Source of the DNA: Escherichia phage vB_Eco_F25
DNA length: 64,000 nt
Sequence record: OP870144.1
Strand: one strand, 5' to 3'
A program made the translations under genes and the position numbers. The notes under the pieces were generated by a model that did not search any database, was not told where the DNA came from, and saw only the letters and a program-made list of their open reading frames with translations. Positions 36,476 to 42,936 of this stretch are shown piece by piece (position 1 is the stretch's first letter; each line of letters starts with the position of its first letter).

Positions 36476-36792
36476 AAGTCCTCAACTTGAAAATCGTCTT
36501 TAAACAATCGGTTAACTATATGAGCTATTATATCACCATGACACGGCTTTGGTTTACATGTGCATCCTAGCCTCATTCCACGTAAAGGCTCTAAATGTGC
36601 TTTAGTTATTTCTCCGGATTTAATTCGACGTATAAAATCTTTTTTGAATAATTCAATGGCAGCCTCCCGGCTGCCAGCATCTTTACCGACGTAATTTCCC
36701 CAAAATGTACCACGGTGAATATTAACATCAAAGTCGGATTTATATTTATTCACTACTTGGCATAGACGGCCCGCGCGGTGATAATTCGTCAT
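36466..36792 (-). CDS. Hypothetical Cys/His-motif protein (T4 nrdA.1 position)
   Basis: 108-aa ORF; C-terminal [11 protein letters not shown] motif suggests metal binding. Confidence 0.6.
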
Positions 36793-37021
36793 ATTGTTTT
36801 TCCGTTAAAACAGTAATATCATAATAACAATCTGAAGAAGTTTTAACTGTAGAAATTTTATTATCAAAATACTCACGAGTCATTTTATGAGTATAATATT
36901 TTTTGCCATAAATGATAATAGGCTGATTTGGTCCTGGAACTTCTAACTCGCTTGGGTTAGGAAGTGTAAAAAGAACTACACCAGAAGTATCTTTAAATCG
37001 TAAAATCATATATCCTCTCAA
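36746..37021 (-). CDS. Hypothetical protein (T4 nrdA.2 position)
   Basis: 91-aa ORF. Confidence 0.5.
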
Positions 37022-37032
37022 TTAAATTAAAA

Positions 37033-37344
37033 TTATACCGCCATCTTTCCTTTAATTGACGGATGAGATACATAGTTGTTAAGAACAAAATTATGAGGCT
37101 TTGCAAATTGACTCAACCAAAATACCTGCGATTCTGTGTCCCATTCATCAAATTCATCTGGAAATTTTAATTGTAATTCGCATAAATCCATAGGTTCACG
37201 GCGTAAAATTTCTTTACATTGTTCTACGTGATTCATATAGATATGAGTATTACCACCAGAAAATATCAAATCTCCAGGAATAAGATTACACATTTTAGCT
37301 ACAATATGAACTAACGTAGCATATGATGCAATATTAAATGGAAG
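37033..37344 (-). CDS. td: Thymidylate synthase, exon 2
   Basis: Exon boundary placed from the recalled T4 td intron 3' end (…CATAATG|CTACCG); translation LPFNIASYATLVHIVAKMCNL… continues the TS fold; exons 1+2 give 286 aa. Confidence 0.9.
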   Translation of the reverse strand, partial: LPFNIASYATLVHIVAKMCNLIPGDLIFSGGNTHIYMNHVEQCKEILRREPMDLCELQLKFPDEFDEWDTESQVFWLSQFAKPHNFVLNNYVSHPSIKGKMAV

Positions 37345-38360
37345 CATTATGTTCAGATAAGGTCGTTAATCTTACCCCGGAATTATATCCAGCTGCATGT
37401 CACCATGCAGATCAGACTATATCTCCAACTTGTTAAAGCAAGTTGTCTATCGTTTCGAGTCACTTGACCCTACTCCCCAAAGGGATAGTCGTTAGGCATT
37501 TATGTAGAACCAATTCCATTTATCAGATTTTACACGATAAGTAACTAATCCAGACGAAATTTTAAAATGTCTAGCTGCATCTGCTGCACAATCAAAAATA
37601 ACCCCATCACATGAAATCTTTTTAATATTACTAGGCTTTTTACCTTTCATCTTTTCTGATATTTTAGATTTAGTTATGTCTGAATGCTTATGATTAAAGA
37701 ATGAATTATTTTCACCTGAACGATTTCTGCATTTACTACAAGTATAAGCAGAAGTTTGTATGCGAACACCGCACTTACAAAACTTATGGGTTTCTGGATT
37801 CCAACGCCCGTTTTTACTTCCGGGTTTACTGTAAAGAGCTTTCCGACCATCAGGTCCAAGTTTAAGCATCTTAGCTTTAACAGTTTCAGAACGTTTCTTA
37901 ATAATTTCTTCTTTTAATGGATGCGTAGAACATGTATCACCAAACGTTGCATCAGCAATATTGTATCCATTAATTTTAGAATTAAGCTCTTTAATCCAAA
38001 AATTTTCTCGTTCAATAATCAAATCTTTCTCATATGGAATTTCTTCCAAAATAGAACATTCAAACACATTACCATGTTTGTTAAAAGACCTCTGAAGCTT
38101 TATAGAAGAATGGCATCCTTTTTCTAAATCTTTAAAATGCCTCTTCCATCTCTTTTCAAAATCTTTAGCACTTCCTACATATACTTTATTGTTTAAAGTA
38201 TTTTTAATCTGATAAATTCCGCTTTTCATAAATACCTCTTTAAATATAGAAGTATTTATTAAAGGGCAGTCCTACAATTTAGCACGGGATTGTCTACTAG
38301 AGAGGTTCCCCGTTTAGATAGATTACAAGTATAAGTCACCTTATACTCAGGCCTCAATTA
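37345..38360 (-). mobile_element. Group I self-splicing intron in td (1016 nt) carrying the I-TevI ORF
   Basis: 5' end TAATTGAGGCCTGAGTATAAGGTGACTTATACTTGTAATCTATCTAAACGGGGAACC… recognised as the T4 td intron; length 1016 nt matches; splits an otherwise continuous TS reading frame. Confidence 0.9.
37492..38229 (-). CDS. I-TevI: Intron-encoded GIY-YIG homing endonuclease I-TevI
   Basis: 245-aa ORF (I-TevI length); N-terminal GIY-YIG motif (MKSGIYQIKNTLNNKVYVGSAKDFEKRWKRH); zinc-finger/linker CKCGVRIQTSAYTCSKC. Confidence 0.93.
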   Translation of the reverse strand: MKSGIYQIKNTLNNKVYVGSAKDFEKRWKRHFKDLEKGCHSSIKLQRSFNKHGNVFECSILEEIPYEKDLIIERENFWIKELNSKINGYNIADATFGDTCSTHPLKEEIIKKRSETVKAKMLKLGPDGRKALYSKPGSKNGRWNPETHKFCKCGVRIQTSAYTCSKCRNRSGENNSFFNHKHSDITKSKISEKMKGKKPSNIKKISCDGVIFDCAADAARHFKISSGLVTYRVKSDKWNWFYINA

Positions 38361-38909
38361 ACCCAAGAAAACATCTACTGATCGTTGATACCACTGCAAA
38401 TCCAAATAACCATTACGCACATTAAACTGATAGAACATGTGACAAGGCGGTAATGCCATTTGCTTGAGTTCAGCTGGATTCCATGCTGAAACAACTTGAC
38501 GTCTATCATTTGGCAGTTTTTTAATACGATCAATAACTTCTACAATTTGGTCTACACCGCCAAAATCACGCCATTGTTTTCCATAAATTGGACCAAGTTC
38601 ACCACTATGATATCCTAAATCTTTTGCCTGATTTTCGTAATTTTCATCCCAGACTGTTTTGCCTTGAATTAATGAATCATGCTGAATTAATCGTAAATCA
38701 TTTACATTAGTACTTCCTGATAAAAACCATATTAGCTCAGCAATACAAGCTTTCCAAGCGAGCTTCTTAGTTGTTACTGCAGGAAAACCTTTAGTTAAAT
38801 CCCAGCGCAATTTAGTACCGAACAAAGCAATTGTTCCTGTGCCTGTTCGGTCATCAGTTTCATAGCCATTTTCAAAAATGTCTTTAATTAAATCTTGGTA
38901 TTGTTTCAT
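38361..38909 (-). CDS. td: Thymidylate synthase, exon 1
   Basis: 183 codons ending …RSVDVFLG at the intron 5' splice site; TS active-site Cys region (ALPPCHMFYQF). Confidence 0.92.
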
Positions 38910-38953
38910 TTAGTACCTTATATAAATTATAATACATTTTATGAAGCTAATAA

Positions 38954-39313
38954 TCAATACGGTTTAGCATCAAATTTTCTTTCAATTTCAGGCGTGAAAT
39001 ATAATTCTTTACCGCGTTTGGAAAAGCGACCAATAATATGATAATTATTCTCATCAAACGTAATATTGCCAATATCCATAGCTTTCAACCAAATATCGAT
39101 ATTTCTGTCAAGCTTTATATCAAAATTCCAATACGGAGAACTATTACCGAAAATACTGCAAGCGGATTCAGTGAAACAACTGCTATAAATCTTGTCTTTA
39201 GGAACTACTAATTGATAGACGCCTTTAATAAACTGAGGACCCTGCCATTTAGGTTGTTTCGCGTCTTTTTCTAATAGAATAGGGTAATAATTAAAGCTCA
39301 TATTTTCCGCCAC
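38954..39313 (-). CDS. Hypothetical protein (119 aa) inserted between frd and td
   Basis: Uninterrupted ORF filling a roughly 410-bp gap between frd stop and td start; co-oriented; no recognisable motif. Confidence 0.55.
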   Translation of the reverse strand: MAENMSFNYYPILLEKDAKQPKWQGPQFIKGVYQLVVPKDKIYSSCFTESACSIFGNSSPYWNFDIKLDRNIDIWLKAMDIGNITFDENNYHIIGRFSKRGKELYFTPEIERKFDAKPY

Positions 39314-39321
39314 GCGTTATT

Positions 39322-40148
<827 letters not shown>

Positions 40149-40158
40149 ATTATTTTCC

Positions 40159-40401
40159 TTAAACAGACTTTTTCACAATTTTCCAATCAGCTTTAAACTG
40201 TTCAACGTCAGAATAGTAAATCCAAAATCCCGCGCTTTCTCCATCTTCATAAAGAGGACATCCATCACATTCATCTTCCCACCCCATATCGCGTAAAAGG
40301 CGTTCAGCTTTTTCAACAAGCTCAGAATCTTTACCGATGATATTAAAATACCATTTACCTCTAACTTCTGAATCTTTGATGCTCTGGCGTTGTAATCTCA
40401 T
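40159..40401 (-). CDS. Hypothetical protein (T4 frd.2 position)
   Basis: 80-aa ORF. Confidence 0.6.
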   Translation of the reverse strand: MRLQRQSIKDSEVRGKWYFNIIGKDSELVEKAERLLRDMGWEDECDGCPLYEDGESAGFWIYYSDVEQFKADWKIVKKSV

Positions 40402-40509
40402 TTTATTCTCCTTAGCAAGCTTTAATCAAAAGATATAAACAGACCAACATAACTGCTGCCATAATATAAGGTGCGAACATTTTCTTTTCTCCATTAGTTT
40501 TGATAGGGT

Positions 40510-41343: not shown

Positions 41344-42249
41344 TTAAAGGTCATTCAAAAGGTCATCCAGGTCCGTGTCATCAGCACTAGATGAACTGCC
41401 AGAGCTTGAGCTCATAAAATCATCTTCAGTTTTTGTTTTGAAGTCATCAACATTGAATGCATCCAAATCATCAGCAACTTTATCAGCTTTCTTAGCGGCA
41501 GTTGCTGCGGCACCACCCATAGCAGCAGTTCCCATAACTTGACTGAACTTAGTGCTCAGTTCTTCAAACGATTTGAATTTATCTTTAGAAGTCATTTCAG
41601 AAAGGTCAACCATTTGTTCGAACAGTTCTTTCTGGAAAGATTCATCATCAATGTTTGGAATCGCAGATTGATTCAGGAATTTAGATTCATCGTAGTTACT
41701 AAAACCAGAAACTTGTTTAACTTTCAGTACAAAGTTAGCACCTTCCCACGGACAAGTTACATCAACCGGAGTTTCACCCATTTCAACATCAACCGCAATC
41801 ATCGCGTTGATTTTATCCCAGATTTTCTTACCGAAACGATATTTAAATACTTTACCTTCATTTTCTGGAGCAGCTGGGTCTTTTACAACAAGAATATTAG
41901 CCCAGTAAGAAGTTTTACGTTTAACAAGACTGTACTCTTTATTGTCAGTGTTGTACAGATCATTTTTACTGATGTACTGACATACTGGACAAGAATCGTA
42001 ATCACCATGGGTAGATGAACATGTTTCAATATACCATTTACCATTTTTCTTGAAACCGTGATTTACAAGAATTGCGAATGGTGCTTGTTCATCATTTTTA
42101 GACGGAAGAAAACGAATTACTGCTTGACCGTTACCCGCATTATCGAGTTTCAGTTTCCACTCGCCTTTATCTTCAGAAGAAAAACCTTTATTGCCATTCA
42201 GTTTAGCCATTTGTGCAGCAAGTTCAGCAGTAGATTTACGTTTAAACAT
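41344..42249 (-). CDS. 32: Single-stranded DNA-binding protein gp32
   Basis: 301-aa ORF; sequence [51 protein letters not shown]… recognised; acidic Ser/Asp-rich C-terminus; known autoregulatory leader upstream. Confidence 0.97.
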
Positions 42250-42312
42250 TTTATTTCCTTTTTAATTTAATTTAATTAACAGTTGGTGCTATGACACTTT
42301 ACCTCATAGCTG
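42250..42312 (-). promoter_or_regulatory. Gene 32 mRNA translational operator (autoregulatory leader)
   Basis: Minus strand reads GCTATGAGGTAAAGTGTCATAGCACCAACTGTTAATTAAATTAAATTAAAAAGGAAATAAAATG: pseudoknot-forming segment followed by UUAAA repeats, as described for T4 gene 32. Confidence 0.7.
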
Positions 42313-42936
42313 GCATAATTCGCAATACTCTGGGTCTTCGAGAGGTATCCAACCTGAGTTGAAATACTTTACCATCGATTTAGCAGTTGTATCAGTTATA
42401 TTTATATTACCTTTAACTCTTCGCCATCCGGGAGTTTTACCGTACAGATTAGAGGATAATAATAACACATAATTCTCGTAAGCAATATGAGATAATTTCC
42501 AAGACTCTATATTAGCTCGTGATGTTTTCCAAGGTCTAAAATCGTCACGGTTCATATAATTAGCCAATCTCATATGCTCTCTAACTTCCGGGTCTTTTGC
42601 TGGATGAGTTTCACCACTCACACCAAATCCACCACCAGCATATACCAGATTAAAATAGTCTGGATTATCTCTGGCATTTACTTCAAGTTGGTATTTTCGT
42701 TCTGCTTCAATAACATCCAAGTCATCATCAATTTGAATTATTTTAACGCTCGGTTTTTGAAGCATTAGCGCATTCAAAAATCTTTTTTGTTTACATGAGC
42801 TCCAGTATTCCTTTCCGGAAGAGTCATATATTATTCCGTTCTCAAATGAGCAATTTAATTTACTACCGATATAGTAGTATGGCGGAGTCTTATTTTTGAC
42901 ACGGTCTTCAAATGTAAACCAATATACTATATTCAT
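42304..42936 (-). CDS. segG: GIY-YIG-like homing endonuclease (SegG-like; T4 32.1 position)
   Basis: 210-aa ORF between genes 59 and 32; N-terminal IVYWF…YYYIGSK resembles a GIY-(10 to 11)-YIG motif. Confidence 0.6.
   Translation of the reverse strand: MNIVYWFTFEDRVKNKTPPYYYIGSKLNCSFENGIIYDSSGKEYWSSCKQKRFLNALMLQKPSVKIIQIDDDLDVIEAERKYQLEVNARDNPDYFNLVYAGGGFGVSGETHPAKDPEVREHMRLANYMNRDDFRPWKTSRANIESWKLSHIAYENYVLLLSSNLYGKTPGWRRVKGNINITDTTAKSMVKYFNSGWIPLEDPEYCELCQL

Follow-up and report, generated by a model that had tools for sequence, protein, structure and literature searches.

In phage T4, the genes for dihydrofolate reductase (frd) and thymidylate synthase (td) are joined directly: the frd stop codon and the td start codon overlap in the tetranucleotide ATGA, both in M12742 and in the complete genome (NC_000866), just as the original prediction for the locus studied here had stated. 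In protozoa and plants, the two enzymes reside on one fused polypeptide. In T2H, a gene annotated as td.1 (AY262132.2, ABI48932.1) is located between frd and td, and the same gene is called RB32ORF229c in RB32, T2, RB14, and RB51. T-even phages also possess the seg and mob genes, which, like td.1, are optional reading frames among conserved genes and differ between T2 and T4. Unlike the Seg and Mob proteins, Td.1 has no nuclease motif, nuclease fold or DNA-binding domain, and it is vertically conserved. Here, we describe the frd-td junction in a stretch of 64,000 nucleotides of Escherichia phage vB_Eco_F25 (OP870144.1), which we refer to in its entirety as the window.

The frd-td junction of phage vB_Eco_F25

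All genes in the frd-td part of the window are located on the minus strand. The dihydrofolate reductase Frd (39322-39903, 193 aa; Pfam DHFR_1, E 1.3e-18) has an amino acid identity of 97% to the C-terminal part of T4 Frd represented in M12742 and of 96% to the full-length T2 protein. The neighboring td gene is interrupted by a group I intron with an I-TevI ORF, in agreement with the original prediction. Its first exon (38361-38909, 183 codons; Pfam Thymidylat_synt, E 2.8e-64, profile positions 1-175) is 98% identical to T4 exon 1 and is directly followed by an in-frame TAA (38358-38360) with which the 1016-nt intron (37345-38360) opens. The span of this intron corresponds to the T4 arrangement; its I-TevI ORF (37492-38229) matches the Pfam families GIY-YIG, I-TevI_ZnF, and I-TevI_DNA-bd, and the second td exon (37033-37344) covers Thymidylat_synt profile positions 176-266. 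We derived the exon boundary by comparing the intronless 861-bp td gene of T2 with the 1877-bp span found in the window. When positions 36500-40500 were scanned with Rfam at gathering thresholds, no RNA family was returned and even the td group I intron was missed, probably because the I-TevI ORF splits the ribozyme core beyond the tolerance of the model.

In the listed order of the operon, gene 32 (41344-42249) comes first, ahead of frd.3, frd.2, and frd.1, and further Pfam matches in this region are FRD2, Phage_FRD3, and DUF5417. The ORF list contains an 81-aa reading frame (39903-40148; RB32ORF231c, PHROG 3183) between frd.1 and frd that directly adjoins the start of frd. In T4, this position is a mere gap of 72 bp, and EC121 and KarlGJung carry another ORF (PHROG 3566) upstream of it, so that the 81-aa ORF constitutes a second presence/absence polymorphism in the frd-td operon.

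The distance between the frd stop and the td start amounts to 412 bp (38910-39321) and holds a single intact, co-oriented ORF (38954-39313). The original prediction had described a gap of about 410 bp with a 119-aa ORF, and the translation that it gave is identical to ours; its only probable amendment concerns the start codon. The 119-aa version extends upstream to a GTG (39302-39313), and this extension includes a Shine-Dalgarno-like GGCGG (39307-39311). Translation is likely to begin at the ATG at 39301 instead, yielding a protein of 115 aa (38954-39301, stop codon TGA at 38954-38956), because the GGCGG is positioned 5 nt upstream of this ATG, the GenBank annotation of the gene has a length of 348 bp, and distant homologs all align from there. 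The 44-bp spacer separating the ORF from td (38910-38953) contains the td ribosome-binding site AAGG. A consensus scan additionally reveals a putative sigma-70-like promoter (TTGATT-17-TATTAT, 38957-38929, with 9 of 12 matching positions) and a putative MotA-box-like TAGCTTCA (38949-38942). Of the seven other Tequatrovirus loci with td.1 that we inspected, all but that of phage F2, with its 13-bp spacer, keep this promoter-like spacer, and in one GenBank record a promoter is annotated at this site. Phage F2 (locus L023, 1394-3222) possesses a compact version of the junction overall, with an 11-nt overlap between frd and td.1 and a 13-nt gap between td.1 and td.

The ORF matches PHROG 1928 (E 9.5e-36; residues 8-115 against profile positions 2-125 of 126) and is the same gene as td.1 of T2H and RB32ORF229c, with which it shares the position between frd and td and the annotated length of 348 bp. 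Its product is 97-100% identical to annotated hypothetical proteins of T2, T6, RB6, RB51, and other phages. A megablast search with the junction found 538 phage records, 358 of which cover the ORF at a coverage of at least 80% with 95-98% identity, and tblastn detected td.1 matches in 588 records; T2, T6, RB6, RB14, and RB51 are among the td.1-bearing records in these searches. In hundreds of genomes, td.1 is already annotated as a hypothetical gene. Other labels occur as well, namely "putative homing endonuclease" in phage KarlGJung (MZ501089.1) and "reductase" in one record. Our literature search found no paper discussing td.1 or RB32ORF229c; the mobE paper merely cites the T2H accession, and the T4 reviews contain no mention of the ORF. 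The absence of td.1 from T4 is probably the reason why this gene has never been studied.

Conservation of td.1 and the compact junction of T4

The td.1 family extends well beyond close relatives of the window phage. With less than 60% identity, tblastn yielded 226 further records, which belong to phages infecting Klebsiella, Salmonella, Citrobacter, Enterobacter, Pectobacterium, Kosakonia, Serratia, and Erwinia. We scored 24 frd-td loci retrieved from GenBank, IMG/VR, and one metagenome assembly with a family HMM; 19 of them contain a family member, which in every case is placed between frd and td on the same strand. GenBank annotation confirms this slot in Jiaodavirus (Mineola), Gelderlandvirus (S16), Mosugukvirus (PM2), Moonvirus (CF1), Winklervirus (Kc304), and Kanagawavirus (ZX14), so that homologs occupy it in at least seven genera of the Tevenvirinae, Tequatrovirus included; the gene order frd-td.1-td is repeated on one metagenomic contig. 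Across genera, the Td.1 homologs are 26-48% identical to the window protein, a level comparable to that of Frd (43-54%). In the loci that we read, td.1 is accompanied by the td intron in some cases and not in others.

Outside Tequatrovirus, two copies most commonly follow one another in the order frd - td.1a - td.1b - td. Stop and start codons overlap in this arrangement, and the reading frames share 4-23 nt with frd, with each other and with td. The second gene, td.1b, is a paralog of td.1 (hhalign probability 97%; PHROG 1928, E 5e-38); with the family HMM, the first copy scores at E 1e-35 to 1e-39 and the second at 1e-11 to 1e-18. Tequatrovirus and Jiaodavirus keep the "a" copy alone, and the window does not hide a second one. 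The pairs gp155/gp154 of S16 and gp191/gp192 of PM2 belong to the same family and share slot and strand with td.1 of the window; they form two overlapping copies, whereas the window possesses one type-a copy, which is separated from frd by 20 nt and from td by 44 nt. The td.1b gene lies directly before td, for instance in the loci L007 (2797-3147), L008 (2808-3155), and L024 (3344-3688), and its product carries the conserved insert ALVIxGxxPTIxxFKRNPxxY. In locus L016, a longer variant of about 145 aa comes first and an a-type copy second. When we searched 1.8 billion representatives with HMMER, only 20 clusters emerged, all of them small phage proteins of 95-116 aa; a broader profile that included the paralogs gave 31 clusters (113-148 aa), all from T4-like phages. 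No fusion to another domain and no named protein was present among these 31 clusters, and our searches with the td.1 family found no bacterial homolog.

The conservation of the ORF in relatives, which the original prediction had singled out for checking, is strong. We compared the window with six Tequatrovirus alleles plus phage F2 and obtained dN/dS ratios of 0.02-0.07 for td.1, 0.08-0.18 for frd, and 0.04-0.11 for td exon 1; between the window and F2, td.1 differs by 35 synonymous and 11 non-synonymous substitutions. Judged from this substitution pattern, td.1 is a genuine protein-coding gene under strong purifying selection and not a chance frame. The dS values of td.1 (0.10-0.97) lie in the same range as those of the neighboring genes, and td.1 should therefore have been diverging within Tequatrovirus for about as long as they have. 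The base composition of td.1 (GC 0.33, GC3 0.29) compares with a GC of 0.31-0.39 and a GC3 of 0.21-0.28 in its neighbors; it is native to the locus and does not show the atypical values that one would expect of a recently acquired "moron" insertion.

A further, unrelated gene can occupy the slot. In 236 records, among them EC121, Sf21, and JS98 (Dhakavirus), a 68-aa ORF of PHROG 9550 is found between frd and td in the same orientation, and its ends overlap with the stop of frd and the start of td (locus L004, 2576-2782, for EC121; locus L034, 1501-1704, for JS98). That the EC121 ORF might be a truncated td.1 was ruled out by an hhalign probability of 0.2%. Homologs of the PHROG 9550 ORF with 43% identity exist in the unrelated Phapecoctavirus, for example in phAPEC8, and judged from these matches the ORF looks horizontally mobile. 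It is unannotated in JS98, and the label "flagellar biosynthesis protein" that it bears elsewhere looks like an annotation artefact. The T-even phages thus possess three junction alleles: td.1, the PHROG 9550 ORF, and direct overlap. As estimated from evenly spaced rows of the matching records, td.1 accounts for about 66-75%, PHROG 9550 for about 18-25%, and the compact allele for about 7%.

Junctions of close relatives differ accordingly: T2 and T6 carry td.1, while T4 does not, and an HMM search through all six frames of the complete T4 genome detected no td.1 homolog (best E 0.8), so that T4 does not harbor a corresponding ORF elsewhere either. In the window, the td.1 unit is flanked by a 9-bp direct repeat, TAAATGAAA, on the minus strand. 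Its left copy (39320-39328) spans the frd stop codon and its right copy (38904-38912), at a distance of 416 bp, spans the td start codon. The other Tequatrovirus loci with td.1 likewise have the pair, 414-417 bp apart, in six out of seven cases; the exception is phage F2, whose frd 3' end differs. T4 possesses a single TAAATGAAA, and its junction, GTATATAAATGAAACAATACC, differs from the td.1 allele only by the lack of one repeat-to-repeat unit. In an alignment of T4 with the td.1-bearing locus L009, 30 nt before and 26 nt after the repeat are identical, and the repeat itself brackets the missing 416 bp. On the simplest reading, the T4 junction would have arisen by a deletion of 416 bp between the two TAAATGAAA copies.

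The repeat fits a target-site duplication and a deletion equally well, and the motif is common at gene junctions. It occurs 11 times in the window, where shuffled sequences lead one to expect 3.9, with sites that include 9053, 10504, 16763, 26586, 29928, 32247, 38904, and 39320. Since TAAATGAAA is generic, it is therefore not a unique scar and cannot on its own separate deletion from insertion. Ten of the 11 sites lie on the coding (minus) strand or at gene junctions; the motif is probably a recurrent stop-TAA/ATG-AAA junction and could provide microhomology for deletions between neighboring genes.

The probable direction of the change is indicated by the synteny in outgroups and by the divergence within the genus, and not by the repeat. 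At the outgroup site, td.1 is present in six other genera, absent in RB69, and replaced in JS98. RB69 (Mosigvirus) shares the compact junction core with T4, with different flanks; the compact state would therefore have arisen or spread more than once, or it is older than assumed, and in RB69 it would represent a second loss or an allele exchange. Taking these sequence comparisons together, we infer that td.1 is old and that T4 lost it, rather than that the window phage gained it. We assign a probability of roughly three in four to this reading, in which the ORF is td.1, a long-standing resident of the frd-td junction that disappeared from T4. The oddity would then be T4 and not the window phage, as the reference phage lacks a constrained gene that most of its relatives keep. 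Moreover, nature provides an allelic series, with no copy in T4, one in T2 and T6, and two in S16-like phages.

Properties and possible role of Td.1

Td.1 is a mildly basic, 13-kDa, single-domain protein whose family members have a pI of 6.8-9.4, mostly above 7.7. The family motifs, QxxW near the N-terminus, G-[IV]-Y, and the C-terminal GRFxKxG, are all present in the window protein. Only six residues are invariant in the 22-28 sequences that we aligned (Q16, W19, G27, G91, K95, and G97), and L9, Y29, and F93 are nearly so; not a single Asp, Glu, His or Cys is invariant among 28 aligned family members. The original prediction had recognized no motif in the ORF, and our scans with Pfam, NCBIfam, and PADLOC bear this out, as they returned no match for the window protein or for any of the 22 family members; likewise, PDB sequences searched with the family profile yielded nothing above noise (best E 0.058).

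An AF2 model that was built from an alignment of 22 sequences reached a pLDDT of 90.4 and a pTM of 0.83; a first model derived from three sequences had a pLDDT of 58.6 and was discarded. The accepted model predicts a beta-rich protein consisting of a small beta-barrel, one helix (residues 68-76), and, at the C-terminus, a hairpin with the GRFxKxG motif. Comparison with solved structures found no significant match and no nuclease among the neighbors, and a structure search of BFVD returned exclusively uncharacterized proteins of T4-like phages. OB-fold domains, which like the Td.1 model combine a small beta-barrel with one helix (SSB, RPA, S1, HIN), are the most frequent type among the weak structural matches. 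Because the family has no invariant acidic residue, His or Cys, an enzymatic function, including that of a nuclease, is very improbable for Td.1. The conserved aromatic and basic positions, namely Q16, W19, Y29, F93, and K95 together with the GRFxKxG hairpin, look like a binding surface.

We tentatively propose that td.1 is translated together with Frd and Td and that Td.1 serves as a dispensable, non-catalytic binding or adaptor protein in the machinery that synthesizes thymidylate and dNTPs in the phage. This suggestion builds on the gene neighborhood and on the translational coupling, and we would not be surprised to see it fail, as the frd-td neighborhood in T4-like genomes may merely reflect an inherited gene order. 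Dispensability is indicated by the fact that T4 and RB69 lack td.1 and that EC121-type phages have a replacement; it is no less compatible with an accessory or host-specific role than with a metabolic one. Should Td.1 indeed work with dihydrofolate reductase and thymidylate synthase, it would be a new component of the classic dNTP-synthetase complex.

Almost as probable as the adaptor proposal, though likewise doubtful, is a role of Td.1 as a host-directed early accessory protein engaged in anti-defense or host takeover, for which the position in the operon would be of historical significance only. In its favor, td.1 is small, dispensable, and located in an early region, and it is present, absent or replaced within a single genus. 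The restriction of the family to phages, for which we found no bacterial homolog or fusion, points in the same direction, as do the tandem paralogs, which are typical of diversifying counter-defense genes, and the other occupant of the slot, PHROG 9550, which is shared with Phapecoctavirus in the manner of movable accessory genes. However, purifying selection on td.1 in Tequatrovirus is very strong (dN/dS 0.02-0.07), and both its position and its overlapping frames are conserved in seven genera that infect different host genera. The missing PADLOC match also speaks against this role, although it carries little weight since PADLOC covers bacterial defense and not phage counter-defense. If Td.1 were a host-interaction factor, it could explain some of the host-range differences of T2 and T6 versus T4.

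Two more specific functions come to mind. Td.1, together with Td.1b, could be a non-enzymatic subunit of the thymidylate cycle with a new fold that bridges or regulates dihydrofolate reductase and thymidylate synthase; the fused polypeptide of protozoa and plants is a case in which these two enzymes are physically joined, but we consider such a subunit unlikely. Its deletion from the model phage T4 would then explain why it escaped notice for decades. Alternatively, Td.1 could be a small OB-like protein that binds single-stranded DNA or mRNA, for instance as a regulator of the frd-td-nrd transcripts at the level of translation or RNA, an idea to which we attach still lower odds.

Mobile elements in the vicinity of the junction

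The original prediction interpreted the ORF as a lineage-specific acquisition and considered the junction a hotspot for mobile elements in T-even phages. The junction is indeed polymorphic, with three alleles. Nothing ties td.1 to a mobile element or to the intron. The acquisition itself is not supported in view of the approximately two-thirds of matching Tequatrovirus-like records that carry td.1, T2 and T6 among them, of the same-slot homologs in six other genera, and of the native composition of the gene. Its strongest version, a recent arrival through mobile-element traffic beside the intron-containing td gene, can draw on the absence of td.1 from T4, on the polymorphic slot, on the 9-bp direct repeat when this is read as a target-site duplication, and on the nearby homing endonuclease genes for I-TevI and SegG (42304-42936). 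We nonetheless regard it as highly improbable, as the homologs occupy the same slot in seven genera with a divergence comparable to that of frd, the dS of td.1 in Tequatrovirus matches that of its neighbors in a native compositional background, the 9-mer TAAATGAAA is a generic gene-junction motif, td.1 is found irrespective of the presence of the td intron, and the Pfam and NCBIfam scans contain no transposase, integrase or nuclease signature.

That td.1 might encode a free-standing homing endonuclease, as annotated in KarlGJung (MZ501089.1) and as its position as an optional ORF between conserved genes, reminiscent of T4 seg and mob, could suggest, deserves practically no credence, since Pfam, NCBIfam, and PDB searches found no GIY-YIG, HNH, LAGLIDADG or PD-(D/E)xK match, no Asp, Glu, His or Cys is invariant in the 28 aligned members, the single 115-aa domain has no separate DNA-binding domain, the protein has no structural similarity to nucleases, and the gene is under strong purifying selection and syntenic in seven genera, with a dS like that of its neighbors, instead of being sporadically distributed; the label fails on every feature that we tested.

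Exchange of DNA segments has left other traces in this part of the window. The td exon 2 product is almost exactly that of T4 in its first 52 and its last approximately 14 residues, but a block of about 35 aa between them is replaced; overall, its identity is 74% to T4 and 73% to T2, compared with 96-97% to EC121 and to the IMG/VR locus L012. This pattern has the appearance of a segmental allele exchange immediately downstream of the intron insertion site. An ORF on the minus strand that lies directly upstream of gene 32 (42304-42936) is 100% identical to the T4 SegG protein (210/210 aa). T2 lacks segG at this position; a T4-type segG and a T2-type frd-td junction thus occur together in the window, and the genome is a mosaic.
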